Made by a program: the position numbers and the translations under genes
Source of the DNA: Dipteris shenzhenensis
Taxonomy: Eukaryota
Direction: 5' to 3' (one strand)
DNA length: 64,000 nucleotides
Assembly (NCBI GenBank): GCA_047967505.1
Contig: CM106538.1
Shown here: positions 6,646 to 57,300 of the stretch, one piece after another
How the letters are laid out: each line of letters starts with the position of its first letter
Numbering within the stretch: position 1 is the stretch's first letter
Notes under the pieces: generated by a model
Databases searched by the model: none
What the model saw: the letters and a program-made list of their open reading frames with translations, nothing else
What the model was told of the DNA's origin: nothing

Positions 6646-9529
6646 ATATGCCTCTAGCCAACAATATACCCGCTAGATCAAAACAATGTAGCGGGACTTC
6701 CATTAGATAGCAAGTGAGTAGATCCAAATCCTTGAACTTTTACAAGATACTTGGGCAAGGTGCAAAGGCTCTTAGCGACCAAGGTTGATAAGCTTTGGTT
6801 GATCGAGGTTGAAAGGAAAACTCCACCAAATACCAAATGGAAGTTGAAGCTCAAATCTCATTTCCACAAACAAACCTTGATACTTAACACCACAAGGATG
6901 CCACCAACATCACCTTGTAGAGCCCCTTTCAAGGGTAGTTAATATCGACTATGGCAAGGAGCACAAAAGCAAAGTAGCAGCACTCGCATGCCAGATTATC
7001 TGTTGTTAGTCACCAAATCCAAAAACGGCATACACATAGCTTGAAAATTTTGGTTAAAATTTTGTATGAAGGTTGTAGATTTTGTATGGTTTGGAATATG
7101 ATGTAAACCGGTGGTTTTGCAATACAAATAATATAAAAGGCAGCGGATTTATATATATATTTGCAATGTCATACTGGAATTTTTAATGGGTTAATGTAAA
7201 GTCTAAGATTATGAGGTGTAAGTGCTATGGTGAATTGAAAGTGTTAACCTTAATTAAGTTAAAAAGGTTAATATTAAGGTTAATTAGGTTAATATTAATG
7301 TGAATTAAGTGCTTCAGGTTATGTTAATTGAGTCATCGTAGGAAGAATGACTAATTAATTAATAGAGTTTAGACTGGGAAGCCAATCCGAGAGAGAAAGA
7401 GAGAGAGTCCAATCCGAGAGCCTTTTGTGACAGTTGTTCATCTGCTCTTTTTGTTTAGGGAGAGAGAGAGAGGCTTTTCGCTTTCAAAGACTGCGACTTC
7501 TGTTATGTGTGAGAGAGAGAAGGATTTCTTCTCACTCACAGTTTCTCAAGGACTCCTAAGCTCAAGAATACTCAAAATTTGATGGGCACACAAGTAAGCT
7601 CAAGGGCACATACGGATCTTGTAGGTTGTTTTAGTTCTCTTTGCACTTAATGGATGTCAGAAGTTCTTTAGTACTTGTTGAACTAGCACCCTTTAGTCAT
7701 GCTACTTTGCCCTTGTTTGGGGTGCCTCTTATTTCCATCTCCTTTTGCATCTTTTGCATTTATAATCTATAAAGCTTAAATTATACTTTTTTGCATCTTT
7801 ATGTTTGCATCTCTCATCTATATAAAGCTTAAATTATATCTTTTGCATCTCTCATCTATAAAGCTTAAATTATACTTTTTTGCATCTTTATGTTTCATAT
7901 GAACTGGAAGTGGTTCTTGGTTAGCCACCTCGTTGTTTTAGTAATTGTAAGCGCAATTCTGTGGATGATGATGCATGGCAAAGTATTGATAGTCCTTGAA
8001 AACCATTTCATACCTCAGATTTCAAAGGACAAAAATGTCTCTAAAGGGCAAAATGCCACTTCATACCTCTGATTTCGAAAGACATAAGTGCCTATGGAGG
8101 GAAAATTTGGCTTGGCTAAGTGATATATTGGTAGATGAAATAGTGATTCTAGTAATGCTCCCAAAGATTTTGTCAAGCTTGCATTCGAGCACACATTCAA
8201 TAAGATCCTCACTATGGGGATATCTTTGAGTAACTCAAGTGTCATGTTGTCAAAATCATATTTAACATAGGCCATTCGACTTAGATAAGAATAGAAGTTA
8301 AGAAGCATGGAAGGTGCAAGCATGGAGCATGGAAGGTGCAAGGCCCAAAATTTTGAGAGGGGAGAGGGCCCAAAAATTTGAGAGGGAAGAGGAAAGAGGG
8401 AAGCGGGAAAATAGGGGAAAAGAGATTTCCCCCAAACCTATCTCTGACTCCCAAATGGCTCATTCTACATGGTATCCTCCTGCTCACCACTCACAACCGT
8501 AATAGCTAACCCCTACCTACTCACGACTCGAGGTTCCCATATCCCTTACCTCTTCATTCCCTGTACCTTCCTGAGCCGTCTCATCTCGCATCAATTGCAA
8601 GGTCCTCGATCAAAGCTGAAGTGAATCTGCGCGCAGTTTCGGAGTGATCATCGATCACTACTTAAGGTCCTCAATCAATCGACAAATTTAAAGCAGTAAT
8701 GCAATCTAGCGATTTGTAGTTGTCTCGTGGACTTCAGAAATCTGTACTGCGCCTGCATCCACCTTCATTCTCTCCTCGAATCTATGCATACCCTAGTCTT
8801 GCATATGCTCAGCCTATTATACGGTACTGTCTAGTCTCCTCGCTGCATCTATGCACCTCCTGAGTCCTACGCCATATATATTAATTTGCTGCTATACGAC
8901 GTCGACTGCTCGAGATACAGTACACTCAATTGGAGGCTTAATTAATTTGAAGGTAAGAAGTTATATATATCTAGACTAATTGCATTCGGCGTACGTCGGC
9001 AGAGCTAGTCGTTTAATTTTTCATCCACTAAGGCTAGTATACCGCATCGTCGACGTACTTACTATATTTGCTTCGATCTGCACGGCGCCCCAGTAGCTCT
9101 AATTTTAATTTCTGGCTAGTAGCTGCTACACTAGCTATAGCTTACACTGCGCCCAGCTAACTAGTACACCGCGCTAAGGGGCCAGCTCCGATCCGTTCGC
9201 CCTGTAACTGCAGCAGGCTGCAATAAAAGGTTGATATATCTGTACATGTGTATACTAGCTACTGCGCACCATTCGAAGCAGCTCGCGGCCGGGGCGTACG
9301 TTCGTATACAATCTCAAGTCAACTCCCAACAGGTCGATTGTGACACACCTTGGGCAGCAATTTCCAGGTTAGTATATAGTAATTCGATCCATTTACCAAG
9401 GAATTTTCCAGCATTAACCCCCATTTTAATTTCTATCCTAAAGTAATCCTATCTCTTAATATATATGCCTCCCATGCCACAAATCCTGTCAAAGATATCC
9501 TGTCAAAGATGTTGCCATAAATTTGTATA

Positions 9530-10900
9530 TGCCTACTCATGTTTTGCCTATGTGTATGCTTCTATATTTCTATAATATGCTTGTACTTTTTTATTCTTCT
9601 ATATTTATATAATTCTATATGCTTCTATATCTTTGCTTTATGTTTCTATATTTCTATAGGCTTCTATATCTTTATGTTTCTATTTAATGAATGCCATTGT
9701 GTGCCTTATTTTATGCTTGATGTTTATGCCTTATGCTTCTATGCTTTATGTTTCTATATGTGCTAGTCTATGCTTGCTTATGTCTCTACATGCTTTATGT
9801 GAATGCAAGTATATGCTTTATTTGAATGCCTATTAAGTTTATGCTTTATGTGAATGCCTATTTGCCTATGCTTCTTTAGTCTATGCTTCTATTGCTATTT
9901 AATGAATGCTTTATGTGAATGTCTATGTCTATGCATCTATGTTTATGTATGCCTATTTTATGCTTTATGCTTTATGGATCTTGTTTATGGATGCCTTCTT
10001 TATGCTTAATGCCTCTGATTTAAGTTTATATATGTCTATGCATCTATGTTCATGTATGCCTGTGTTGATGCTTCTATATGTCTATATGCCAATATGAATG
10101 CTTATATGCCTATGCTTGTTTGGAAATTATGCTTATGTGTAGGCATGCCTATGCTTCTATGCCTATCATGCTAAAGTAAACCTTTGCAATTACATGCATG
10201 CCTTTACTTTTCCTTAATTTAGTACCTATGTGAATGCCTATGCCTATTTGCCTATTTGCCTATGCCTATGCCTATGCCTATGTGAATGCCTATGCCTATT
10301 TGCCTATTTGCCTATGCCTATGCCTATTTGCCTATGCATATTTGCTTTATGCCTATTCTTTAAGTTTATGTATGCCTATGTCTATGCTTCTATATGTCTA
10401 TATGCTTATGTGAATGCCTACTTTATGCTTTATGCCTATTTGCCTATGCTTCTATATGTCTATATGCTTTATGTGAATGCCTATTTGCCTATGCTTCTAT
10501 TTGCTTTATGCTTTATGTGAATGCCATTGCCCATGCTTGCCTATGTTTCTATATGTGCTAGTCTACGCTTGCTTATGTCTCTACATGCTTTATGTGAATG
10601 CCTATTTGCCTATGCTTGCCTATGTTTCTATACGTGCTAGTCTATGCTTGCCTATTTGCCTATGTTTCTATACGTGCTAGCCTATGCTTGCCTATTTGCC
10701 TATGCTTCTATTTGCTTTATGCTTTATGTGAATTCCATTGCCTATGCATGTCTATGTTTCTATGCCAATGTGAATGCTTATATGCCTATGCTTGTCTGGA
10801 AATTATGCTTATGTGTAGGCATGCCTATGCTTCTATGCCTATCATGCTAAAGTAAACCTTTGCAATTACATGTGTGCCTTTATTTTTCCTTAATTTTAAA
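9530..10900 (+). repeat. Degenerate TATGC(C/T) simple-repeat tract
   Basis: Dense tatgcc, tatgct and tttgcc hexamers; a ~135-bp direct repeat at about 10087-10222 and 10763-10897. Confidence 0.9.
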
Positions 10901-11216
10901 GTAATTTTAAAATAGCCATGTATGCTAAGATTAGAAGAGTAGATTGGAACAAATTTAGTTTTAAAATGTATATAAATATAAAGCTCGTGTTTAATTCTAC
11001 GATTGTTACAATGCTTTTGTTTTTAAATGTATATTATAAAGCTCATGTTTAAAATCTTTATGCTTTTATTTATGCTTCTATGTGTTTTTATTTTAAGTGT
11101 GTTTATACATGTTTATAAATGCCATGTCTCTATGCTTGTGATGGACTTTGTTGAGCTTATGCAAGTGTTTCTTCTCTAGGGTGTTTTATTTATGATTTCA
11201 TGTGCCTTATTCCAGA

Positions 11217-14200
11217 TGGCAACAGATGATAGCCTACGGAGATGTAGATGCAATTATAGGTGTAGGCATTCGCCTCTTGGCTATCAAAATGTGAGCCGAA
11301 GGACGCATTATGTGCATTTGCAACAAGACTCCATTGGAAACTTACACGCATCAATTTTGAGGAATGTGAATGAGGAGAACTCTATTGACAATGATACTGT
11401 AGTGAATGAAGAACTCATTGAATCATCTAATCGACGGAGGTGGGTATGGTGTAGATGTGAAACTTATTGCCATGGTGGCCGCTTGGTCGCTCCATCAACT
11501 TATGCAAGGCATATGCAAGTTGATGAGCGATTTGAAACTATTGCAGAAAATCTTGGTTTGCATGCTCCACACTTTAGCTTTTCTGGACCTGAAGAAGAGG
11601 AGAATAATGAGCTTATGCATCAGATGGAAGGAAATGATGAATTTACTGATATGCATGAACAGGATAGGTTGGATGATGAAGAGGATAACATGGATGCTTT
11701 AGGAGAGGATAGGTTGGATGATGAAGAGGATAACATGGATGCTTTAGGAGAGGATAGCCATTTATCTCTCGCTGATAAAATCATACAAGGATTGATTGAG
11801 TTGCAAGTTCTTTGGGATGGACATCAAGCTTCAGTGGAGTTTCAAGATAGTATGCTTAAAATTCTATTTGGAGATATGGGTGGTCCTAGGTCTACAAAAC
11901 ATGAAGGTGCAAAAAGATCGAGTTCGAGTAAACTATTGGTCCAACTTCCAGAAACATGGGATGGAAGTCTAAATGGAATAACTGTTCCCACATGTTGGGA
12001 GCAATTAACTACTATGTTGACAAGGCTTGGAATGGTTGAATCAAAGAGATATAGAATATGTCAAGGAAAAGAGGATTCCATACATGCTCCAATACTCTAT
12101 TTACCAAGCAAAGAGGACGCTTATAGTGGTAACACTGTTGAATGCCAATGCAATAGAAATGTCACTGGAAAGAGAAAATTAATGCACGATTGTTTAACAT
12201 GTTGTGAGAAGTGTGAGAAATGTGAAGTGCCTAGAAAGGAAATGTTATGTTTTGACTACATTTCCATTGGTGAACAATTGAAACTACTTACTAAAAGTAG
12301 ATCTTTATGCCACGAATTATTGGAAATGTGGCAAAATAAAGACAAATGGTTGGTATCGGACAATTCTAATGAAAATACTAGAATTGATGAGTTTTGGGAT
12401 GGCAGTAAATGTAAAAGTGTTAAAGAGTTTTGGGATCCAGAATCGGAGTTTGAGTTGCCATTGGTATGTGAGAAGGGGTATTGCAAACAAGCTTATACAG
12501 CATGGCCATCTTCACTTAAATTGGAAGCACTTTTGGAGGGTTGGAAAGAACGTGAGAAAATTTACAAATTTGTTTGCAAGGCTTGTCGAGCTCTGATACA
12601 AGGTCCCCAAAGACTTTGTAAGGTAAATCTTCCTAATTTATACTATGTGTGGTTTCTAATTAATTTATGTTCGAGGATTACATGTAATGTTGTACTCTAA
12701 ATGTGTCTTTCTTTACATATACAGGGAGATCCATGCAATTTTTCTCTCTTATTGCATTGGGATGGGTTCCAGACATCAAGAACAACGCAGAGGAATTGTG
12801 GCATCATCGAGATAAAGGTTCTCAATTGTGGAAAGAAGTCCATAATTGGAGCAATACCAGTCTTGTTCATTCCATTTAGTTGCAAAAAAATTATAGGAAG
12901 CTCAAGCAAACTCTTTTATGTTTTTATGAAACCTTTGATAGATGAATTAGAAAGTTTGTTCATAGATGGAATTGATATAGATTTCAATTATCCAATGCCT
13001 TTAATTTTTGGGCGTGATAGCTCTTTTTCCCAAACCTTCAAAGCACGTGCTATGCTTATGATGGTGACTGGTGATCATCTAGCTCAATGTAAGATTGGAG
13101 CTTTTAAAGATGGTGGCCAAGCTTTTTGTCGTAGAGACAAACCTATAGCTACTTTAGAATGTGAAGGATCAAGTCGATACCTTTATGACGAAAATAGATT
13201 CCAATTCAAATATGCTCCAGCCAAGAGGTCGACAAAAGATATGTTGAGAGACTTGCTTCTTGCAGAGCGAGCAAGCACTCAAACGCAATGTGAAGACATT
13301 CTCAAAGAGGTTGGTCTTTTAGGTAGATCATGTCTATGGAGATTATATGATCTTTATGGGTTCGATTTATCTTTTGATCTTGTGTACGATTGTATGCACA
13401 TACTAGCATTTGAATATGTTTTCAAAGTACATGAGCTCTTTAATGAGAGATATCGATAATAGAGTGAAGAAAGAAATCGATGAAGCAACTCATAGAATGA
13501 CATTGGCCACACCTTATTCCATCCGATATGGTCGATGGCCAAGGTTTCCTAGCAAGCATTTTGAGAGTTACAAGGCAGAGGAAACACAAAAGTTCGTACA
13601 ATGGTGTCTTCCTTATGTCCTGAGTGAAGTCCAAGGTATTCCTTAGAAATTCTATGATTTGGGTCTCTTGATCATAGATATTGCTCATGCCTTTTATAAC
13701 TATACTAGAAGTAATGGCTGGTCTCAAGAAGACATAAACACTCTGAGGGTATTGCTTGCTTCTTGGAGAGTAAGATCAGAAGAGTGGATTGGAAGAAACT
13801 CAGCTCCATTAGAGCATGTTGCAGGTTTCAGAGAATTTCTTGATGATATTTTGTGACATGGCAGCCACGATGGGTTTTGGTGCTACATATATGAGCGTAT
13901 GGTCTCAACATATGCTAGCATCAAAACAAACAATAAGGACAATGAGATTTCATATGCAAACTATCATCGAAGGAGATTTTTCACATGGGTCTTTCTACAT
14001 AATCAAGAAGATGCTGATAGGTTGTTTCCTCATCAAAGGATGTTGAAAGAGTTTCATGGAGTTCTTTCAGTCCCAGATGGATATTTAGTGGATAAACATG
14101 GATGTTATGACTATCCTCAACGGCATTCATTAGGATTGATACATCTATCATCCATTGAAAAAGCGAAACATTTATGGAGTTTAGCTACATTGCATGCGAA

Positions 14201-15054
14201 AGACTATCCTTGCCAAAGAGTCATTGGCCAAAAGGGTATTGTAATAGCAAGAAAGAAGCCAAAAGTTAGATATGCAACAAGTGAGGAAAGAAGGTATGTA
14301 GAGCAAAATCTTCAATTTGGGATTTAGAGAGTAACATAATACAAGAAAATTATGTTCAAGGGTGAGGTTTATAAGATTGAAGATAAGGTTATCGTAAAGT
14401 CTGAAGAGGATGCAACATTAGTCTCTAGTGTGGGACACTAGAAAGCGTGTATAGCATCGTTTTTTTCCTTTCAGCAATAATGGCGACATGCAACTATTCT
14501 TTGGAGCACACTACTATAGGTAGCGCATTGTTGTTGAAAGAGGATATGAAAGATTAGATGTTGATGGCACCACTGGCATGAGTGTCCTACAAAATGCATA
14601 TTTGCCATACACCTGGAATTGTATAAGGCCAATTAGTTCTTTATTGCATAAGTTTATTCCTCTACAGCATGGAGGTGGTATCATTGCATATGAGACAAAA
14701 GATTTAGGATTGAGAACACGTTTAATCCAGCCTGGTTGCATTGGATGTATTCCTCCTTGGCTAGAGGAGAATGATATTGTTTTATTGAAGTCTTATCTTG
14801 ATACAATATGCTCACCAAATGATCTCAAGTATGCCATTGTCAGAGATGTGGATCACACGCTAAATCAAGTTAAAGTAGCATGGCTACAGCTGGTTCACTC
14901 TGAGGAAAAGAGACGGAAGGTCTCGATGGAAGACAACGAATGGAAGGATTGGTGGTTTTGTGTGTCTGTCAAAGAGACGTGGAAAGTTATGAAGACAAAG
15001 AACATGGTAGTTCAGGGCAAAGCCAAGATAGTTCCTATCATGTGGCAATCTTAG
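11217..15054 (+). pseudogene. CMC/EnSpm (CACTA)-superfamily DDE transposase, decayed; intron 12623-12724
   Basis: Motifs FDYISIGEQL, IDEFWDG, K|GDPCNFSLLLHWDGFQ, FMKPLIDELESL, MMVTGDHLAQCK, LYGFDLSFDLVYDCMHIL, YKAEE, FWCYIYERMV...IKTNNK. Frameshift near 13410; stops at 13644, 13854 (probable CGA>TGA) and 14325. Confidence 0.85.
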
Positions 15055-15218: not shown

Positions 15219-18205
15219 GATGGCTAGCAACAACATGGACATGGCGGCGCTACTAAAGAAAATGATGAGTGAAGATGCAAGTTTCCTTGGACTCATGGAT
15301 TCCATGGTTAGTTCAATTAAAGGTATGTCATTTTTTGTTGGATTTATGTTATGCATTTTGAGAAAGAAGGGGTTGAACATGTATGTTATGCTGATTTTGT
15401 AAGCATGTATGTTATGCATTTGGAGAAAAAAGGTGGCTGAATTTATAGCATGTATGTTTTTGCCTTTGGATGCAAGGGAGGGGGTTGAATATATGGGAGA
15501 AGGGGGCTGAATATATGGGAGAAGGGGGCTGAATTTATGGCATGTATGTTTATGCTTTTGGATGTAAGGGAGGGGGCTGAATTTATGCATTTGGATTTAA
15601 GGGAGAAGGTTGAATTTACGCATTTGGATTTAAGGGAGAAGGCTGAATTTTTGGGTGAAGAGAACTGTTTTATGAATTTATGGGCTGTATTCATTGCATT
15701 TAGAGAAAGAAGGGGCTGATTTGTAAGCATGTATGTTATACACTTGGAGAATCTAGGTGGCTGAATATATAGGGAAAATGCCTATGGGAGATGCATCAAA
15801 GGATGTGTCCTTCAAAGAGAACAAGGAGCGTCTCCCTTTGCAAGATAAATCTCAAGTTTCTGTTCCTCCGATCTCAGGGGCAAGTTTTACACCTACATAT
15901 GATGAGGTGTTTAAACCACCCAAAATGAATAGTAGGGATAAGAACAAGCTATATGGGAAAGAGCTCCTAGAAAAGTGCTTTAGAGGCCAGCATTCTCTAT
16001 TGTTAGAGAACTACTGTCGTGTACGAAGGTGGTTCGAGGGAATAGAGACTGTTATAGATCTACGGCATAAAAAGGAAGAACAACAACATATTAAAGGCAT
16101 CATCCATGAGCGTCATCATGAGATAGTGCCTCTAAAGTTTAGTGGAGTTGAATATAGCTGGAGAGAGGAAAAGATATACAGGTGGTGGATCTCCTCAAAG
16201 AAGTCTAGCAGGAAATACTCGAAGAAGAGGAGCCTTGTAAATAATGTGAGTTGGCCTTTCAATTATGTGATATTTTATAAAACTATATATTTGTAATATA
16301 GATATGATCTAGTCAATGTATTCTATTGTGTTTCAAAGGACGAAATGAGCAAAGTTCAGAGAAATCTAGAGCTTGAAGCAACTAGTCCTTGTATTGACAA
16401 GTCTCCACATAATTCAATTTTAAAGAAGGTATGTTCAATACATTTAATGGTTCTCTAGCATGAAGTAAAAATTTTGTATTTATTTGCATAATTTGTGCCA
16501 CTTCTTACTTGGATTATTTAACTCTTTAGCAGTCTATTAGAGATTCTATTTCTATTAGAGGGGAATTTCATGAACAAGGATATTCAACATCTCAGGTTGT
16601 TGACGCATTTGAAAGATATGTTTTTCTAAGAAAAATTAAGAATATCGTATACCAATTGAACTAAGTTCTCATTCCTTTGGATTTCAAAGTGATATATAAG
16701 AGTTTAATAAAATTTTGTATGTCTATTTGAAACTTTTTAGAGATATATGGAGCCTCAAGCAACTACTCCTTGTATTGACGAGTCTCCATGTAATCCGATT
16801 TCAGAGAAGGTATGCTTATATTAATACCTTGAATGGTTCTCTACTTTTAGTAAAAAATTATACTTTTTCGTGTAATTTATGTGACATCTTACTTGGATTA
16901 TTTAATTCATTGGCAGTCTATTGGAAATTCAGTTTCTATTGGAGGAGAATTTTATGGACAAGGATGTCCAACATCTGAGGTTGTTGAAGCATTTCCAATA
17001 AAAGATATGTTTTTAATTTTATAAAGAATATAAAATGTTTTCTTTAATAAAATCATATGTTCTTTTGTGTAGATAGATAAGTTCATGGCGAAGAGATTAG
17101 AAGGGTTTGAGTATTATCACTCTGATCAGGTGTGTAAGTTTCAATCATGAGTTTTCTTCTATTTTGAAAAAATATTATTAACCATTCAGTTATTCACAAT
17201 TCATCTATCTTGAATATTTTATATCAGGATTCTTATGGTGAAGCGAATGCTGATATGAATGAGATGACATTTTCTAAGATGCTTCATGGTGACATCACTA
17301 CAAATAAAGATAAGGTATGAATTGCCTTTATCTTTTAGATATGCTTATGATTGAAGCTATTTTCTTTGATTTAATTGTGATCAGCATCTTCTTTTTAGAC
17401 AAATTTTAATTTAATTTTGTCATATTTTTAGGATCCAATATCAAATGTGATTGATTCTACGAATGAAATGTCTAGAAAAAGTGAACGAAAGAGAAAGGTA
17501 AAAGTTTTCATTTATGCAATACCCTTTAAAAGTAAAGCAAGTACTTTGTATGCTTGTATTTTTACATAATTCTTTCCAATGGCATTAACACTACTTGTTG
17601 TTTATCATTCATAGGTGAGTGAAAAAATGAGAGATCACTTAGAACAGAAGATTGTGCAAAGAAGTGATAAATGCCAAGGAAAGAGATGCAAGGTATTCTT
17701 ATATTTAGAATTTATTTTCTATGATTTGAAGTCTTTATACCTTGATTTTAATCTCAATTTTTTATTTGAATTAGAACTTAAAAGATATTCAAGGTACAGA
17801 CATGGAGGTGACTACGATTTCAAGCGAGTATAAAAGAGTATGTAACAGCCTTTTACATTAGGCTTGATTATTTAAATCATTTGCTTCGAATTTGTTAATA
17901 TATTGTCACTTGTTATGTTATTATGCCCTCAGGTGGATGACATTTCAGAAGAAAATATGGAGACGATACTTTTGAAATACATGGGAGTCCACACAATTCA
18001 TGACATGTACTTTTCCTTAAAAAGTACATATGTGAAGCTTAAAAAGATGGAGAGTAGCTTCAAATAGTACTCTACAGACATCAAGAAACTAGCCAGTAAC
18101 ATTATGATAAGGGACATTGTGCATTGGCTTATTGAAAGTCAAAAAGTTAGATTCATGGAAAAATCTGATGTGCTTAGTTTAGAAGATATAGAGATTTTGA
18201 TATGA
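15219..18205 (+). pseudogene. Multi-exon second (accessory) gene of the CMC-like transposon
   Basis: ATG at 15219 with donor near 15322; large exon about 15757-16245; series of short GT-AG-bounded exons in AT-rich introns (about 16339, 16741, 17072, 17229, 17432, 17614); last exon 17933-18205 with one in-frame TAG. Paralogous to 420-671. Confidence 0.65.
15415..15770 (+). repeat. Intronic minisatellite (agaagggggctgaat..atg)
   Basis: About 8-9 degenerate copies of the agaagg(gg)gctgaat motif. Confidence 0.8.
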
Positions 18206-18280
18206 CATTTAACTTGATTCAAATAAGTCTTTAAAGATGTTATGTAGAGCTCTTCTAGCTCTCTTTGGTTGTCTTATATT

Positions 18281-18440
18281 TCTCTCGGGGGGGTCACTCA
18301 TCATATGTAACACTATCACGTGAGTTCAACAGAAGGATTTTTTTTATTTCTAAAATTTACAGAAATAAATATACATAAGGGACTATTTAAAACAGTTTTG
18401 GAAAAAATTTACGAAAAGGGGTACATTTTATTAATGAAAA
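18281..18440 (-). mobile_element. Partial inverted copy of the MITE at 20842-21092
   Basis: ctcgggggggtcactcatcatatgtaacactatcacgtgagttcaacagaagga... is the near-exact reverse complement of about 20925-21090. Confidence 0.85.
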
Positions 18441-18509
18441 CATATAAAAATGTGAAACATGAGTGCTTCATTTCTTAAATGATATAACTTACACAAAATC
18501 ACTTATTTC

Positions 18510-18930
18510 GCGTTCTCCCTATATAGGGAAATAGAAGATTCTCAATATTGTTTACTAGTTCATAACCAGGAAGTTTGCAAACTATGAAAAATGGGGCATT
18601 TTCTAGTTTGTCTTACAAAGAAAAAGAGGATTCTCTATATCATTTACTAGACTATAACTAGGAAGTGTGCAAACTAGGGAAAATGGAACATTTCCTAGTT
18701 AGACTATGTAGGGAATTACTAATGAATTTCATTATCTAGGAAAATTTTCCTATATGGTGAAATTCTCTAATGATTCCCTCCATTGACTTATACATAGGGA
18801 ATTTTTTGATTGATTCCCAAGATAAGGTAACTAGGAAGTGTTCCATTTTCTCTAGTTTGCACACTTACTAGTTATGTTCATTTCAAACTAGTAAATGATA
18901 TAGAGAATCCTCTTCTTTTCCTATACAGAG
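18510..18930. repeat. Foldback repeat cluster (subterminal repeats or MITE)
   Basis: ~95-bp unit in two direct copies (about 18515-18608 and 18610-18700) and one inverted copy (about 18829-18930). Confidence 0.75.
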
Positions 18931-19815
18931 GATGTCTCAAAGTTCCTTGTGCAAGAGCTTATATGACATAACATCTCATTCATCTTTCTCGTCAGCTTCA
19001 CCTTGATCAATGTTCATTTGCTTCGACCTTCATTTTCTTCGCCTCCTTCTACACTGTTCTGTATCTCCATGTTTCATCTTGATTTTCCGTCTCCCACTTC
19101 TTTTTCTCTTCTTCTTCATCATACCTCGTGACTATTATTTTGTGGCAAACCTCATTGCCTCTTTACCCCTGCTGTAAATATTCCTAAAAGCTAATGTCTA
19201 CAAAGTGTGTTTACACTCCTATTAAATTTACTTTTGCACTAGCTCCAATGATTCTCAAGAAAAGCCCACATGATTCCAAACATGTAAAAACTTTCCTCCA
19301 TACAAGATAGATTTAGATAATCATTTAGCGCGTTCTATGTGTCTTTTGGTGTCTCTTTCTATCTAGTGTGAGAGAGAGATTTCACCTCCCAAAAAAAGGT
19401 GTGATTAAAAAAAAAAGTGTGCAGTTTCACCAAAAAATGTGTGTGTGTGTGCGCGTGCCTTTTGTGCATGAGAAAGGTGTAGCAAAAATATTTTTGGATT
19501 ATGATCAGGTTACACTCAAAGGATTTCATTCGATTTTAGAGTTCAAAGACCATGGTTCTTCATTTGATCCACAATTACTTCTCTTGAGTTTACACATTAC
19601 GTCACCCATATGAAAGTATTTAATCATGAAATCAAGAAGGTTGGAACTTGGGGAGGGAGGAAGTGCTCAAGAGTTGAGGAATGACTAGGGTGATTGATGC
19701 GATGCGTGAAACTCATCTCAAAATTGTAGAATAAAGTTTACATGAATCAAAACATGACACCTAGCACATGATTTATGATTAGAAGTGTCATTCACAGGGA
19801 GAAAATAGCATGGAA

Positions 19816-20047
19816 CACTATATTAGGGAATTTTCAAATAGTTTGGGACTTCCGAATATGGTTAAGATTTGGCCACACGGTCAAATTTGAACCCATTACT
19901 TGAAAGTGTAGTCCATCCTAAGAACCATATTAGGGAATCCTCCCAAGTCCCACTTTCAAATAAGGTCACGTTTTGGCAACATCGTCAAATCTTAACCCTT
20001 TACTTGAAAGTGGGACTTGAGATATTTCCAAATTATCCAATATAGTG
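19816..20047. mobile_element. Small CACTA-ended foldback element (MITE)
   Basis: Ends CACTATATT...AATATAGTG; internal inverted repeat caagtcccactttcaa / ttgaaagtgggacttg; no clear TSD. Confidence 0.6.
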
Positions 20048-20841
20048 TTATGGATCTTGCATTGATTATATGAGAAAAAGTCATTTCATGAATCAAAGCC
20101 ATGATAGATCATGAAGGAATGTATTTTTAACACTAAAAAGGAAATGCATGTTAATCGTATGGACATGTCTCAAATAGTATTTGGGATAGGAGTCATGCAC
20201 TATGAAAGTAATTGTAAGCATGAAATCTAAAACACATGTTATATTAACTCAAAGGAATCTAGCATAGTAATTATGTGCATTGATTATGAAATGTTTTGCA
20301 TGAGGATTCAAATCACATATTATTTGTATGCGAAATTGTAAATGGATTTTATATAATGTCCATTTGAGACATATGAAAGTGCCTTTTTCATGCATATGAA
20401 TTTCTAGGTCTCTATAGATAATGTAAATAATCACTTTGGTTATTTGCATATGTTTTAAATTGCAAGATTGCAAATTGGAGGAGAATGGATCAAGAATGTC
20501 CAATAGCAACCAAGAAGAAGAAAAAGAGCAAGAGATAGTAGCTTGCAGAAAGAGGTATGGTAGCTTTTGTAAATGCCTTGACACAACATTGTAAAAAAGG
20601 AAAGATTCACGCAAAATGATTTTGCAATCATCTAGTGAAACAGTCTAATTAACTTCATACATAATGAGCTTCCATTTGAAAAAAAGAGAGAGGAAGAGAC
20701 AAGAAAACCTAGAAACACGACATAGAGATGGAAGTTAAACAGATTGATGCTAGAGGCATGTGGAGACAAGTTATATGCTTGAGACATCGATTAGGTCAAG
20801 GGTTTGGAAGGTGGTGATTCTCTCCGAATAAGCCCGTGAGC

Positions 20842-21092
20842 TATCTCGGGGGGTTCACTATGCATAAACCCTCTATATCACGTGCATTCAAGGCCTATAT
20901 TTAAAATCCCTTATATTGAAATTTTTCATTAATAAAATGTACCCCTTTTCTATACAAATCTGTAAATTTTTTCCAAAACTATTTAAAATAGTCCCTTATG
21001 TATATTTATTTCTGTAAATTTTAGAAATAAAAAATATCCTTCTGTTGAACTCACGTGATAGGGTTACATATGATGAGTGACCCCCCTGAGTG
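20842..21092. mobile_element. ~250-bp MITE with G6/C6 TIRs
   Basis: tatctcggggggttcact...agtgacccccctgagtg, flanked by agc on both sides; an empty-site paralog (ataagcccgtgagcttct) lies near 21248. Confidence 0.75.
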
Positions 21093-21779
21093 AGCTATTG
21101 TGGTTTTTTATACGTTGGTACTCCATGCCATTGTGTGAGTCGATTAGCATGGAAAATTATTGGATCCAATATTAGGTATCAATGCTTCCACATGGCTTAG
21201 GTCAAGATGTGTGGAGGGTGTGTGGCAGGTGGCAATTCTCTCTAAAATAAGCCCGTGAGCTTCTATGCTTTTTTATACATTGGTACTACTTACTATTGTG
21301 TGAGTCGATTAGCATGGAAGATTATTGGATCTAATATTAGGTATCAAAGCTTCCACAATGCGTTTCAAAACATCATTAACAGATTCTCCATGCCCCTATC
21401 ATGAATTAGGTTTTGATACCAAATAACCTTGTATTAATGGAAAATAACATGAAAGCTTTAATGCACTAAAGAAAGTAATTGTTGAAGGGCATGCATTAAA
21501 GATTTTTGACCTCCAAAAAGGGTCTAAAACTCACTTTTCGAGCACTTTTTTAAGAAACGAAGCCAAGTGGTAGTGTGGTAGGAGAAACTTTACTTCAAGA
21601 GGTATGGGCCTTGCCCCTACAGGGAACCCCTCAAGGGCCATATCATCAATTTTATTTTCTAAAAGTTAATTGTATTTTTCTAGATGTATCTCCATGCAAC
21701 CATCGTGGTGGGTTGTTGGAGCTATTTTAGCGCTATTTTGGTCCTAAACCAAGAAAAATGTAGTCCTACTTTACTAGAA

Positions 21780-44964: not shown

Positions 44965-47368
44965 TCATTCCTTGACCTTGTTCTCTTCCTCCTGCATGTG
45001 AGCATCTGCATAGATGTTAGACATCAAGACATATGTTGCAGCATCCTTTTCATCCAATTGCACAGCATGTTCAAAGGCCAGTCTTCCAAGCTCCACATTA
45101 CCCCACTTTCGACAAGAACCCAACACCATATGCCAGACCACAAGATTAGGATGAAAAGGCATATTCTTCAGCATCACTACTGCCTGGTCTAATTGGCCTG
45201 CGCGGCCAAGGAGATCAACCATGCCAGTGTGATGCTCAATAGTTGGAATGATGCCATAGTCTTTGCTCATGGTTTCAAAATACTTCTGCCCCTGATCCAC
45301 TAGACCCGTGTGACTGCATACAGTAATAACGATAGAGAAAGTAACCCCACCTGGCTTTACCCCTTCTGCTCTCATTCTCTCAAGCATATGGAAAACAGTT
45401 TCACTTTCTCCTCGCTGGGCATATCCTGTGATTAATGCATTCCATGAGACCTCATTTCGGATTGGCATCTTGTCAAACACTTCCTGTGCTTTTGCAAGCG
45501 AGCCACATTTGGCATACATATCCACCAAGGTGCTGCCAATAAAAATATCTCTTTCCAACCCCTTGTTCACGATTTCAGCGTGTATTTCTCTGCCCTTGTC
45601 TATAGCTCCCATAATCCCACAAGCTTTCAATCTGCAAACAAATGTAACAGCATCTGGAGAGAACCCCTCCAGTTGCATCTGTCCAAAACAGTTTAAAGCT
45701 TCCTCATCAAGCCCATGCTCAGCGTATCCTGCAATCAGTGCAGTCCACAAGACCTCATTTCGAATCAGCAGCTTGTCAAACTCTTCACGTGCTTTCACAA
45801 GCAAGCCACATTTGGCATACATATCCACCAAGGCATTACCAATTAAAAGATCTCTTTCGAGCCCCTTTCTCGCGATCTCCACATGTATTTCTTGGCCCTT
45901 GTATATGGCTCCAATGCTGCCACAACCTTTCAAGCTGCAAACAAATGTGGTAGCGTCTGGAGAGAGACCTTCTAGTTGCATCTGTTCAAAACAGCTCAGT
46001 GCTTCGTCACCAAGCCCATGCTCGGCATATCCTGCAATGAGTGCAGTCCATGAGACCTGGTTTCAAACTGGCAGCTTGTCAAATGCTTCCCGTGCTTTTG
46101 CAATCGAGCCACATTTGGCATACATATCCACCAAGGTGCTGCCAACAAAAACATCTCTTTCGAGTCCCTTCCCGGCAATCTCCACCTGTAATTCTTGGCC
46201 CTTGTCTATGGCTCCTATGCTGCCACAAGCTTTCAAGCCGCAAACAAAGGTGACACCACTTGGAGAGAGACCTTCTAGTTTCATCTGTTTAAAAAGATCC
46301 AGCGCTTCTTCATCAAGTCCGTGATCAGCATATCCTGCCCTTAATGCATTCCACGAGACCTCATTTCACACTGGCAACTTGTCAAAAGTTTCCTGTGCTT
46401 TTGCAAGCAAGCCACATTTGGCATACATGTCCACCAAGGTGCTGCCAACAAAAAGACCCATCTCTAATCCTTTTCTGGCAATCTCTGTGTGTATTTCTCG
46501 GCCTCTTTCTGCATCTTTCAGCCTACCACAAGCCTTCAATAGGGCCACGAAAGTATAACTGCTAGGACCTACAGAATCCTCTTGCATTTTCTGGTAAAGG
46601 TTGAGGGCATGCTGTGATTCCCCACATTCAATATAACCCATGATAAGAGAAGTCCAAGAATACACGTTCCGATCAACCAACTTATTAAAAACCCGCTGAG
46701 CATCACACAAGCTTCCAAGGTGGACAAGCATTGGGACGAGGTAGTTCCCAAGAAATCTGTGATCTTCCAGCCCCCTTTTACGAATGTAGGCATACAAGCG
46801 CTAGGTACACGCTAAATTTTTTTGGTTTTGCACTTAAGCAAGATGCATATAAGGTTCTCAACTGAAGGCAGCTGGGGCATCCGTTCCATAGACGTGAGTG
46901 CCTCCTCTAAGCTGATAGATCCCCAGCCAGTCTTCTCTCGCAGTTCTTGTGCCTTGAAAATATTCACCTGTACTCCAGACCGGGCCTTGCCACAGTCCTC
47001 GACCAAGCCATAGGCTTGGGCCTGACCAGTGGATGCTTTGGCCTTTTTCTGGAGCATGTCTTTATCCCAACCCGGATTGTACGAGACGTCTATGCGTCGC
47101 GACTCCTTGGTCATCGTAAGCTTGAAATCTGAAGATCTTGGATTTGTCTATCGTTAACATTCACAACAGAACCGTCAGACTAGCCAATGTACAGTTCTAC
47201 CTGTGCAAATCATTCAGTTCACACTCGTCGCACACTTACTTTGCCCTTCAGGTTGTCACAAAACGGGGAGGCATCCGTGAAGTAGCACCCTGTGCCTGAG
47301 CTACCTAACCACAATGAAAACCGTTTCAGAACTGCCACGACCGCTCGACTGTCCTTGGTGGAAGCCAT
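44965..47368 (-). pseudogene. PLS-class (E-type, no DYW) pentatricopeptide repeat gene, disrupted
   Basis: Repeated LVDMYAKCG / VSWNALI.GYA triplets; E1/E2 motifs (VVWHMVLGSCRKWGN, ATYVLMSNIYA). Probable exon 1 47368-47240 with intron 47239-47148. Frameshift in an A-run near 46820; stops near 46802, 46366 and 46063. Confidence 0.9.
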
Positions 47369-47739: not shown

Positions 47740-49721
47740 GCCACCAGGTACTCCCACAGGTACATAATCAAGGGCAAATGATGGATCATCTATTGGTGGC
47801 AATGATGAGCCAAATGTGGTTGATATGCAGGCGGGACAGCAATCTGAAATGTCTTAAGAAGAACATCTAGAGTGTCTACACCTGAGAGATTTGTTCCAGG
47901 GGTAGACTATGTGATGCTTACTGATTGCGGGGAGTCTACACCTGAGAGATTTGTTCCAGGATCAACGCAAGTGGGAGTATGCTATGCAATCAGAGATGAG
48001 TTCACTCATAAAGAATAAGACTTGGGACTTGGTTTCTTTACCACATGGAAAGAAAGCATTGCCATGTAAATGGGTCTACAAGATGAAGGTCACAGGTGAT
48101 GACGTGCCTAAGTACAAGGCCCGTTTGGTTGCTAAAGGGTTCAAGCAAGAGAAGGGTGTGGACTTTGATGAGATATTCTCTCCAGTTGTGAAGATTACCA
48201 CACTTAGATGTGTACTTGGACTTGTGGCGATAGAGGATATGGAGCTTATGCAGATGGATGTCAAGACAGCTTTCTTGCATGGGGATTTGCATGAGGAAAT
48301 TTACATGGTACAGCTGGAAGACTTTGAAGAAAAGGGCAAAGAGCATTTGGTTTGCAAGCTGAAAAAGAGTCTCTATGGCCTTAAGCAAGCGCGTAGAGAA
48401 TGGTATCACAAGTTTGATGCTTTTATTCGATCCCAAGGTTTCACAAGAAGTGAGATTGACCACTGCCTCTACACTAAAAGGGCTAAGGATAATAGCCTCA
48501 TACTTCCGGCACTTTATGTGGATGATATGTTATTGGCTAGCAAGAACACTTATGAGCTTGATGCATTGAAGGCCAAGTTGCATGAGGCCTTTGACATAAA
48601 GGATTTGGGACCTACAAGTCATATTCTTGTTATACGCATCACGCGTGACCGGCGTAGGAAACTCCTTTGGCTTTCACAAAAGGAGTATGTTACAAAAGAG
48701 TTGTAGCGTTTCAATATGGAGGGGGGCAAGGCAGTAAGTACTCCATTGCCTCCATATGTGAAACTGAGTCAGGCAGATAGTCCCAAATCAGATGAGGAGA
48801 GGGCCATGATGGCCAAGGTTCCTTATGCATCAGCAGTTGGGAGTCTTATGCATGCTATGATAGCTACTAGAACGGACATTGCATTTGCACTAGGAGTTGT
48901 TAGCCGGTATATGGCTAATCTTGGAAAGAGGCATTGGGAGCAGTTAAGTGCATCATGAGGTACATGAAGGGTATCAAGGAGGTGTGTATTTGCTTTAGCA
49001 AAGGAGAGATGCGTGTATTTGGGTACACAAATTCAGACTATGCAAGGCATGTGGATAGCAGGAGATCCACTTCTGGTTATGTGTTCACCTTTGGAGGTGG
49101 TGGTGTCGTGGATGTCTCGCAAACAGAAGTGTGTTTCTTTGTCTACCACAGAGGCCGAGTATGTTGAGCCACAAAGGGTTGCAAGGAGGCTATATGGCTT
49201 GATCGGCTAGTGAGAGATTTGGGATTCATACAGGTGTACCGACATTGCATAGTGATTCCATGAGTGCTATTCAACTAGCACGGAATCCGGGGTCTTTCAT
49301 GCAAAGACCAAACACATTGAGGTCAGGTACCATTTTATCAAGGAGGTACTTGAGGACAAGCACATAGAGCTTGTCAAGGTTCATACAGATGATAACCCTG
49401 CAGATATGCTGACAAAGAGTCTACCTAGTCAACGGTTTGAGTATTGTCATGTATTAATGGGCATTGGATAGTATGCTCATTGGTTGTTTTCCCTTAAAGG
49501 CACATTGGCCTTTAAGTGGGAGGTTGTGGGGGTTAATTTAGGCCACTGTACCTTAATCTCGGTTAATTACAATACTCAAAACACATATATATATGGATGA
49601 CATAGAAGATTAGGGTGTTCCGCACCCACCAAAACTTGTATGACTCTCTCTTCTGGATCTCCCTCTCTCTCTCACCTTCTTCCATTCCACTTCCGTTGTT
49701 GAGATCTCTCAAAATCTAACA
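47740..49721 (+). mobile_element. 5'-truncated Ty1/Copia retrotransposon (RT, RNase H, PPT, 3' LTR 49525-49721)
   Basis: YKARLVAKGF, QMDVKTAFLHG, LKKSLYGLKQA, LYVDDML, KHIEVRYHF, NPADMLTK; PPT aagtgggagg; LTR TG...CA. Confidence 0.93.
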
Positions 49722-54334: not shown

Positions 54335-57300
54335 GTGATCCAGACTGCCCGCATAGCAACTAGCTTCTATGCTGCTATGCGAGCAGTCTGGATTACCTCA
54401 CCCTTCTACAACAGGAGCATAGAAGGGAAGACATGACACGGGTAATGGCAATAAGGGAAGCAAGGAAATGGGCTGCCTATAGGGATGGCAAAGTGATTAT
54501 TCGAGAAAGAGCTGATAGAGGTGATAAGGGAGAAGGGGAGAAGGAAGAGGGGGAACTATGATGGTGTCAGAGTTGGGAGGGGAGAGCACAAAACAAGCTG
54601 AGTATGGCTATATGGAACTATAATGGTACCCTTTGGTTCAACCCCGGTGGCTTCTCGAAGACATACACAAGCAGAGACATCATCTTCTACACTGAGACAC
54701 ATGAGAGCCCAGAGAGAGGGCTGCCCACGGTGACAGGGTACATTTGGGAGTCTGTTCATAGGAGAGAAATGAGGAGAGATAGTGGAGTACGAGGCTTTGG
54801 TGGAGGTGTAGCCATCCTTTTCAAAACACACTTGAGACCACTCATATCTATAGTACGGAGAGAGGAACATGCACGTCACATGTGGATACGAGTGCAGCTA
54901 CTAGATGCCTGACGGATCTTCATTGCAGTGTGCTATTTCCCTCCACACATGTCATCATATGCCCATGATGTCACTACAGAGGGGCACAGTCCTTATGAGA
55001 CAATACATGATGATATCATAGAGTTCTCCAGAGAGGGAGACACCCTCCTTCTGGGGGATTTCAATGCAAGGACAAGGGATAAGCAAGTGGGCTTAATTGA
55101 CTTCACATATGAGAGAGACCCCCACATGATGCCAGAGTTGGATGCAGCAGAACTTGGGATTCGGAGACTTTCAGCAGATACTTCACATGTGATAGCATAT
55201 GGGCGACACCTGCTTGAGTTGGGAGTTGTCCATGACCTCATCATCTACAATGGCCTTCAGAGATGGCCATCATCTGTGGGGTTCACATGCTTCCCACATG
55301 GAGGCGGGACCAGCACAGTGGACTACCTACTGGGCCCATTGGCTTTTGTCACACGGATACATGACCTCACCATACCCCCCCCCCACTCATATCTGGCCTT
55401 CGATGTTCTTGCTACTACACCAGGCACATGGAGAGTTCCTACCACTACTCGGACCCAGACCCACTTTGACCGTGTCCTTGATCCGTGTATGTGTCACTTA
55501 GCCAAAGAGCTTCCGGCCTTAGTGGAGGCTGATTTAGACCTCACCCACGAGTGGCTTAGCCAGAGAGCTTCTGGCCTTAGTGGAGGTTGATTTAGACCTC
55601 GCCCATGCCTTAGCCACCCTTGTCATAGTGATACAGGATGCTGCCACCAGATCCTTTCCTACAACCCGATCTTCACGTGTATGAGATGGAAAGATACCTC
55701 AAATCCCTTGGTTTGATGATGAATGCAGAGAGATGCGAGCCCACCTCACATGGGAGAGTGAGCCTTGGTTCACTTGACGTCACATGAGGCACACATGATC
55801 TTTTAGCGGTTGACATGCTGCAAGAGACAAGCCTTCCTCACACATAGGATGGATGAGATCATCATATCATTTTGCGGAGGAGACCCAACCACAGGGCGGG
55901 GATTCCTCTCAGAGGGGAAGCCATGCATCCCCATTACGGATCCGGGCGTGTGGCACACTTATGCATGCTCCTTATATGTATGTCCTAAGGCAGACACCAG
56001 CAAACATGTCCTCTATGCCCAGGCCCACTACCTGTCATCTATTCACTACGCAGAATGTGTGGGCTGCACTTTGCTGACTCCACAACCGAAAAGCACAGGA
56101 TCATGAAGGCCTTCGGACAGAGCACTTCCTACATGGGCAGGAGGTTTTAGCACCGATCCTTGCACATATGTTTAACCTTGTAGTTTGTCACGGCTTCCCA
56201 CCAGCATGGAGCACCACTACTATCGTACCAATACACAAAGCAGGAGACCTCATGGACACTGCGAACTATCGCACCCTCATGATTGGCCACACACTAGCCA
56301 AGATCTATGGATTGGTACAAGAGAGAGAGATTAGCAATCATACAAAGGCACGAGGGCAGCAAACACTAGGGCAGGCAAGATTCAGGAGGCAGCACTCTAC
56401 TCTAGACCACATCTTCACTCTGAGGGCTATCATTGAGGAGGCGAGGCCTAGACATCAAAGAGTCTACACATGCTTTGTAGACTTTCGAAAAGCCTTCGAC
56501 ACTATTCGACGATCCCGCATGATCAAGAGACTACAAGAGATGTAGATCCCAGAGATGCTGATATGGGGTGTGATGAGCTTATATGAGTCAGTCAGAAGCA
56601 AGGTCCGTGCCCCAGGTCTATCGGATTGGGTCGAGAGCACCATTGGGGTGAAGCAGGGCTGCCCTCTCTCACTGACTCTCTTTGGACTCTACATTGATGA
56701 GATCGCATCTTTCATAGATCACCTAGGTGGCGAGGGCTCATTATTAGGGGATCTCCTCATACAGATATTGTTATATGTCGATGATATAGTCCTTATATTC
56801 TCTTCAGCGGAGGGGCTACAGAGAGATCTGGAGGCATTAGAGGTGTTTTGCAGAGAGAGAGATCTGACGGTCAACCTTGGGAAAAGTAAGGTCATGATCA
56901 ACACCTCATGAGCAGTGACTAACTGACTTACTTTCACCTATCATGGTGAACCAGTTGAGATAGTGTAGTCATACACATATTTGGGGGCAGTCTTCACAGG
57001 ACCCATCTTCACGATGAAACATGCAGCTTAGGCACGACTCACACGAGGGCATAGTGCTTTGGCTAGACTAGAGCGGCAGTGTTTCCAGGTGCACTTCCAG
57101 GATCCACTGACGAAGGGCTGGCTTTTCGACACACTAGTGCGGCCGACTGTCATGTATGCAACACCTTTCTGGGGGTCTGTATTGGGCTTTATTTGATGGA
57201 GATGCGGCGACACAAGGAGGCTCTTCTATGACAGATTAGAGAGAAACAAGGGATGGTCAGACCACTACAGGACATAGAGGGTGACCGGGCACAGTGGCAT

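Follow-up and report, generated by a model that had tools for sequence, protein, structure and literature searches.

The 64,000-nucleotide (nt) stretch of Dipteris shenzhenensis DNA analysed here (contig CM106538.1 of assembly GCA_047967505.1; its whole length is referred to as the window) carries on its + strand, at 11216–15054, what we take, with a probability of roughly 0.75, to be a decayed, no longer functional transposase gene from an autonomous cut-and-paste element of the CACTA/EnSpm kind, and to belong to a lineage with representatives among ferns, liverworts and a charophyte alga, not to the angiosperm TnpD type. From N- to C-terminus, members of the family show two Cys/His modules, then an acidic linker and a Cys-rich region, a DDE core that includes a long insertion, and finally a predicted BAH fold with a small barrel behind it. 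The window's own copy is a pseudogene, dead and without function, and its only value is as a pointer to this family.

The family assignment was examined with Pfam profiles. Transposase_21 (PF02992) was the sole recurrent Pfam family, being found in 11 of the 19 members of alignment A1 and in 19 of 43 further relatives at E<=0.01, three of these above the cut-off; the members that pass it are P0051 (36.7 bits), P0098 (35.6 bits) and P0089 (31.4 bits). No other transposase family occurred among the Pfam matches of the relatives. Within the window, the open reading frame at 12701–13459 matched the profile with an E of 5.9e-4 (19.5 bits, against a cut-off of 28.6 bits), and the read-through protein P0001 scored 17.1 bits. 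The sequences place the gene only weakly within the Tnp2/Transposase_21 (CACTA/EnSpm) kind; the assignment is made through the homologues that match the profile (transitive homology) and not from the window's own score. Matches to Glyoxalase_2, Triabin, Baseplate_wedge and other Pfam families were weak and were treated as noise.

Transposases of the CMC (CACTA-Mirage-Chapaev) group have a D, D, E triad, a long insertion between the second D and the E, and a C/DxxH motif. Candidates for the catalytic D, D and E were assigned in this family from conservation, not from structure. The candidate first D (12761–12763) lies within HWDGFQ (12755–12772), part of the LLLHWDGFQ stretch, and its column is D in all 21 ungapped family rows. 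The candidate second D (13073–13075) lies in TGDHLAQ of the window, which corresponds to TGDHPAQ in the family, with D in 19 of 20 ungapped rows, and the candidate E (13893–13895) lies in CYIYER, where the E of the W...ER column is kept in 12/12 ungapped rows. A DCMH motif is present at 13388–13399, and the D and H of the DxMH consensus are found in 20/20 ungapped rows. The spacing of the candidate residues in family member P0007 is D307, D409 and E685. Conserved candidate D/D/E residues, a long D-to-E spacer and DxMH are therefore all present at the sequence level, consistent with the definition of CMC transposases.

The gene begins at an ATG at position 11216, one nucleotide ahead of the start (11217) given in an earlier reading of the letters alone (the sequence-only reading). 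Exon 1 (11216–12622) is an intact frame of 469 codons that holds the two Cys/His modules, the acidic linker and two Cys clusters, and its product displays 40–55% identity to fern proteins. It is followed by a putative intron of 102 nt (12623–12724; GT..AG, in phase, with a TAA inside), which was placed there because the protein models of relatives read ...K|GDPRN... without those 34 codons. The first part of the DDE core (12725–13405) gives a weak Transposase_21 match and ends at a first frameshift (13405–13410, from frame 2 to frame 0), where the tblastn pieces switch frame in all five relatives that span the point. The long insertion and the candidate catalytic E occupy 13410–14327, with in-frame stops at 13644 (TAG) and 13854 (TGA, where relatives have R). 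Two more stops, at 14325 and 14337, immediately precede the BAH-like domain (14343–14736), which contains stops at 14439 (TAG; W in relatives) and 14521 (TAG; Q in one relative) and a second frameshift near 14457–14466, where every relative spanning the point switches frame in tblastn. The R, W and Q found in relatives at three of the stop sites fit decay by C-to-T or G-to-A changes. Long open frames are limited to the first 469 codons and the last 176 (14524–15054). With two frameshifts and six premature in-frame stops the window's copy cannot act as a transposase, and the protein of about 1200 amino acids envisaged by the sequence-only reading, which had missed these lesions, cannot be reconstructed from it. 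Every motif quoted in that reading was found on the + strand.

Relatives of the gene were sought in protein and metagenome databases. A word-index search returned 18 proteins at E<=1e-3, 13 of them from the fern Adiantum nelumboides, with the best relative being 55% identical over 97% of the queried part. A HMMER scan of 1.84 billion cluster representatives gave 372 matches at E<=1e-3, of which 66 were at E<=1e-30. The named relatives come from Adiantum nelumboides, the liverwort Riccia sorocarpa and the charophyte alga Klebsormidium nitens, a host range drawn from the few database entries that carry names, and not from the fungi or animals to which the motifs had been likened. In a profile search that yielded 36 proteins, all those with a name were from Adiantum or Riccia; neither this search nor one with the tail region (four proteins) gave a seed-plant name, a silence that is not evidence of absence, both being limited by the word index. 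In a FastTree phylogeny of 63 core sequences (midpoint root, support values not inspected) three Adiantum proteins form the sister group of the window's copy, and both lie in a clade that contains Adiantum, a position that points to a fern as the most likely host.

The protein searches brought up 28 distinct Adiantum protein clusters of the family. In a word search of sequencing runs, a single DNA run contained 9% of the words and no RNA run was listed. Scanning metagenome contigs with a narrower alignment (A4) yielded 75 loci, which represent 48 distinct sequences and 20 DNA-level families; the same contigs gave no match with P0164 alone as query. The largest DNA-level family (among L002–L054) has 35 loci with 23 distinct copies at a median pairwise identity of 88.4%, which is the pattern of a dispersed repeat, and from its sequences the family appears to be mobile. 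Sequence shared among copies of this largest metagenome family extends over more than 2.5 kb on the upstream side of the transposase gene and over more than 3.8 kb on its downstream side, which makes an element length above 10 kb probable. Short repeats of the TTAATTTCATTGCAAAGGA type recur near one apparent 3' break point in the same family.

The window also contains further features around the transposase gene. Two exons of a second, conserved gene, in the position of TnpA, were located on the + strand by tblastn: one at 15733–16191, recognised with the C-terminal parts of P0004 and P0008 (34–37% identity), and the last recognisable one at 17933–18172, recognised with P0004 and P0024 (45% identity). 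These exons gave no match to Transposase_24 or any other Pfam family. The gene models P0004, P0008 and P0024 fuse exons of the transposase and the downstream gene, sometimes omitting the tail or part of the core, which may reflect either alternative splicing of one transcript, as occurs in En/Spm, or an artefact of prediction. Tandem repeats of 22, 33 and 48 nt lie between the two genes at 15403–15650. Upstream of the transposase gene, a short direct-repeat array at 9826–10842 contains 23 copies of ATGCCTAT, all on the + strand; the whole window has 26 occurrences, where 3.2 are expected, and Tandem Repeats Finder reported arrays at 9483–10724. The array may represent the subterminal repeats at the element's 5' end; downstream, neither an inverted counterpart nor a 3' array was detected.

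Searches for the element's ends covered both the window and the relatives' loci. In the window, an inverted-repeat scan gave no usable terminal repeats, a CACTAC scan gave 28 matches where 19.8 are expected, and a paired search for CACTA and TAGTG gave one pair, with 17/28 matching positions and unequal flanks. A paired-motif search for terminal inverted repeats, run on those of the 75 metagenome loci that exceed 6 kb, found none, self-blast of 29 long loci returned low-complexity matches only, and a relaxed CAC..GTG search of 17 loci returned pairs at chance level only. Mapping boundaries from copy to copy revealed no sharp shared ends, the contigs ending first. All of these searches rest on a single decayed copy in the window and on contigs that may stop short of the ends.

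Some domesticated genes typically join chromatin-reader domains to a transposase core, and the locus could on that account be regarded as a transposase-derived gene that serves its host. The six premature stops and two frameshifts already refute this for the window's copy; moreover, the family is multi-copy, as judged from the 28 Adiantum clusters and the 23 distinct DNA copies of one metagenome family, and the transposase gene is accompanied by the TnpA-position gene and the upstream repeat array. We consider domestication exceedingly improbable, and continue with the locus as a decayed copy of a CACTA-like transposase gene.

The N-terminal modules were compared across the 16 family sequences that have an N-terminus. 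Module 1 (11243–11317), with the pattern C-x-C-x3-C ... H-x2-H (CRCNYRC...HYVH in the window), aligns in 16/16, and the cysteines of module 2 (11450–11512), with the pattern C-x-C-x3-C-H-GG ... H (CRCETYC...YARH), are kept in 12/16. In relatives, module 2 gave weak Transpos_assoc (PF13963) matches in three of 13 proteins (E 0.003–0.058), all under the 27.7-bit cut-off, and the window's own N-terminus gave no match to this Pfam profile. More distant members have a single, CPCxxC form of the module. The doubled modules would have arisen when the zinc-type module, single in angiosperm TnpD, was duplicated in tandem.

The linker that follows contains an acidic tandem at 11663–11752, a perfect duplication of 45 nt in which DRLDDEEDNMDALGE is encoded twice (Tandem Repeats Finder: 11661–11757, period 45, 2.2 copies, 100% matches). 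Its unit is 15 amino acids, not 16 as had been counted from the letters. The duplication is not present in the relatives whose sequences were read, and its units remain 100% identical within an otherwise decayed gene, which makes recent slippage in the window's copy its probable origin. Ahead of the catalytic core lies a Cys-rich region (12143–12586) that is kept in the family consensus as CxC...DCxxCxEKCxxC and CxxxxC...CxxC. In the window, the first of its clusters is CQCNRN/DCLTCCEKCEKC (12143–12223) and the second is CEKGYC..CKAC (12467–12586).

The C-terminal tail includes KGEVYKIEDKVIV at 14358–14396 and KACIASFF at 14442–14465. A profile of the tail detects 32 database proteins and 20 of the 75 metagenome loci; the tail occurs in Riccia and Klebsormidium as well as in the distant member P0093, and in P0066 it is visible by eye. 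Because the tail is found in these 32 proteins and the N-terminal modules align in most of the 16 sequences, the motifs first picked out by eye go beyond chance. A 60-residue piece of BAH-like tail was also seen in the Adiantum protein P0021 (538 amino acids, an NB-ARC gene model), at residues about 322–384, and is either a transposon fragment in a resistance-gene-like locus or part of a chimeric model.

The fold of the tail was predicted for the Adiantum protein P0024, the closest intact relative, whose tail is 57% identical to that of the window. With 18 relatives as the alignment, the model had a mean predicted local distance difference test score (pLDDT) of 78.4 and a predicted template modelling score (pTM) of 0.63. 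When this model was compared with the PDB using Foldseek, all the matches shown were BAH proteins, with E between 1e-3 and 4e-2, and included SHL, AIPP3, PBRM1, DNMT1, EBS, ASI1, ORC1, ZMET2, MET1 and BAHCC1. In the VIA comparison 48 of 50 entries were BAH, with AIPP3 at Z 11.7 (108 residues, root-mean-square deviation (rmsd) 5.3) and EBS at Z 11.2. A search independent of Foldseek, across 48,161 PDB representatives, placed BAH domains at ranks 1–12 (Z 8.1–11.7), the first non-BAH match being a PWWP domain at Z 7.6. A PDB search with the sequence profile of the tail returned only five hits, all of them DNMT1 BAH1 regions and non-significant (E 0.47–1.2), while the first match in the ESM Atlas was a ‘BAH domain-containing protein’ (0.90, 159 shared features), which is taken as a lead only. 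The models support a BAH fold for the tail of the closest intact relative, as the sequence-only reading had suspected of the C-terminus; membership of the BAH family at the level of sequence is not established.

Such a domain might also come to stand behind a transposase core if host sequence had been captured by one element, or if gene models were chimeric. Chimeric models do occur among the relatives, P0146 carrying ADH_N, P0086 a peroxidase, P0122 gag_pre-integrs, P0169 an integrase domain and P0021 NB-ARC. However, the tail in the window lies on the strand of the core, separated from the last core homology by no more than about 50 nt, relatives are collinear across the junction, and the order of core and then tail recurs in fern, liverwort, Klebsormidium and other contigs. 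Capture by one element or a modelling artefact is thus very improbable, and we treat the tail as a proper part of the family's transposase.

In DNMT1, the H4K20me3-binding site consists of Y775, W796, D802 and E819, as listed in the figure legend of a review (PMC13109025). In the DNMT1 profile alignment, a family W (in hWKA) and a family Y/W (in the strand ...FFxxxY/W...) fall on the Y775 and W796 of that legend; in either column, 22 of 28 tails have an aromatic residue. The alignment is suggestive of a methyl-lysine pocket in the tail.

Behind the BAH-like domain, and inside the intact 176-codon frame, a predicted SH3/Tudor-like beta-barrel occupies 14746–14982. The last ~115 residues were modelled from the window's own frame (14704–15051), with a mean pLDDT of 75.7. 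The barrel superimposed on the Tudor domain of PHF1 with Z 8.0 and rmsd 2.2 over 58 residues; in a wide search the Tudor domains of SMN and PHF19 were best at Z 7.6, and none reached Z 8. The best Foldseek match (E 0.036) was to a chain of a ribosome entry, and a weak Pfam match to SH3-B_UBE2O (E 0.01) covers the barrel. These comparisons indicate an SH3/Tudor-like barrel of a generic fold.

Several results count against the interpretation of the locus as a CACTA-like transposase gene with a chromatin-reading tail. The window's own Transposase_21 score lies under the Pfam cut-off (19.5 versus 28.6 bits), and neither CACTA-initial terminal inverted repeats nor a 3-bp target duplication, a search for which had been proposed along with the sequence-only reading, was found in the window or in the relatives' loci. 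With regard to the tail, the Pfam BAH profile (PF01426) matched none of 19 members even at E<=10, no Foldseek E fell below 0.001, identity to solved BAH domains is only 7–16%, and the BAH model is that of the P0024 tail, not of the broken sequence in the window. For the candidate pocket, no conserved counterpart of D802 and E819, as the legend gives them, was seen in the family, and one fern subgroup has F or L at one of the two aromatic positions and C at the other. The barrel, finally, fits Tudor no better than KOW, PWWP and MazF (Z about 7), with the chromo-barrel and the UBE2O SH3-B domain being similar.

In intact members of the family, the N-terminal zinc-type modules would bind the element ends or subterminal repeats, and the DDE core would cut and join DNA, thereby excising and inserting the element. 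The BAH-plus-barrel tail would tether the transposase to nucleosomes bearing a particular mark, with the two conserved aromatic residues probably reading a methylated histone lysine. Such tethering would bias where or when the element moves, through the choice of target or through activity. Reading of histones by the tail of intact members is proposed because of the BAH fold together with the two aromatic positions, and we rate its chances at somewhat below even.

The chief alternative is to view the tail as this lineage's version of the common plant CACTA C-terminal domain, DUF4216, acting in oligomerisation, DNA binding or folding with no reading of histones, so that its likeness to BAH would be one of ancestry or fold only. 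BAH domains that have no methyl-lysine pocket are known. The tail also extends to the most distant members that either exceed the Transposase_21 cut-off or cluster with those that do, such as P0093, which suggests an old feature and not a recent addition. The angiosperm CACTA ORF1 is defined by the Transposase-associated domain, Transposase_21, DUF4218 and DUF4216, in that order, which puts a C-terminal domain at the equivalent place (PMC8978399). On the other hand, DUF4218 (PF13960) and DUF4216 (PF13952) were matched by no member (0/19 at E<=10, 0/43 at E<=0.01 and 0/13 at E<=0.1) and by none of the window's pieces at E<=1, although this is weak evidence given that HMMER filters hide most matches above E ~0.1. 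Furthermore, the two aromatic positions kept in 22 of 28 tails are equivalent to a known methyl-lysine site. We regard a DUF4216-like tail devoid of histone reading as rather unlikely, and retain a BAH-type reader as the working interpretation.

A more far-reaching and distinctly tentative proposal, which we consider doubtful at present, is that a CACTA lineage extending from charophytes via liverworts to ferns has a transposase that contains its own cassette for reading histone marks (BAH plus Tudor-like barrel), which would steer or license transposition according to chromatin state, and that the DUF4216 tail of angiosperms may be its degenerate descendant.

The window as a whole, with a G+C content of 31–49%, is plant nuclear DNA, and beyond the transposase locus it has several other recognisable features. 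Directly past the last exon of the second gene, a 2.8-kb stretch (18276–21098) is bounded by long inverted repeats, with arms of 137 nt (18276–18412 and 20962–21098) that are 94% complementary and an extension of 28 nt (18413–18440 and 20923–20950) that is 100% complementary. This stretch resembles a non-autonomous DNA transposon in its own right, which may have inserted into the CACTA element; its ends showed no clear target duplication. Further along, a pentatricopeptide-repeat (PPR) gene of the PLS class with an E motif lies on the - strand at 44965–46800, split across two open frames. A Ty1/copia reverse transcriptase is present at 47915–48706 (RVT_2, E 2e-66), and a fragment of a reverse transcriptase like that of long interspersed nuclear elements at 54913–56545 (RVT_1, E 7e-6, under the cut-off).

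In plants, CACTA elements rank with the most abundant DNA transposons, and to our knowledge no role is known for the C-terminal portion of their transposase. A predicted BAH fold in a tail conserved across charophyte alga, liverwort and fern hosts offers the testable idea that a transposase senses chromatin. This bears on how DNA transposons choose their sites, or escape or exploit silencing, in the very large genomes of ferns, on the origin of DUF4216 in seed-plant elements, and on possible tools for chromatin-directed integration. A full-text literature search, in which papers were partly judged on titles and the starts of abstracts, found no report of a BAH domain in the transposase of CACTA/EnSpm or any other DNA transposon, and it is from this literature result alone that the lineage is termed undescribed.

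In comparison with the TnpD of angiosperm En/Spm, the family shares the Transposase_21 core, a CxC..C..H module at the N-terminus (weakly matched by Transpos_assoc in relatives), the candidate D, D, E residues with a long D-to-E spacer, and the DxxH motif. In a possible parallel to the angiosperm elements, a second gene lies downstream and a short-repeat array upstream, and an extra C-terminal domain occupies the position that DUF4216 has there. It differs in that family scores fall mostly under the profile cut-offs, the N-terminal module is doubled in tandem, DUF4218 and DUF4216 are not matched, and the tail has a predicted BAH fold and SH3/Tudor-like barrel; no CACTA termini were found, and the named hosts are fern, liverwort and charophyte, not seed plants. 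The earlier call of a transposase of the Transposase_21 kind, set apart from the angiosperm TnpD architecture, is borne out by the lack of DUF4218 and DUF4216 matches and by Transposase_21 and Transpos_assoc matches that stay below threshold. As far as it could be judged here, neither outcome that would have contradicted the sequence-only reading came about, be it nesting within ordinary angiosperm TnpD or a C-terminus lacking a BAH-like fold.

The predicted fold of the tail resembles those of plant BAH readers and of DNMT1 BAH1 (Z 11.7 with AIPP3, 11.2 with EBS and 9.5 with DNMT1 BAH1). Unlike AIPP3, EBS, SHL and DNMT1, to which identity is 7–16%, it has no PHD finger or methyltransferase context and instead forms the end of a DDE transposase. 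Readers of histone marks do accompany other recombinases, namely the chromodomain of the integrases of Ty3/gypsy ‘chromoviruses’ and the PHD finger of RAG2. These belong to other enzyme classes and use other reader folds, and the function of the present family is inferred only. By analogy, the idea they would share is that of a recombinase that carries or recruits a reader which guides or licenses cleavage and integration, and, if the proposal is true, the reader cassette of this lineage would be the DNA-transposon counterpart of chromodomain targeting in chromoviruses.

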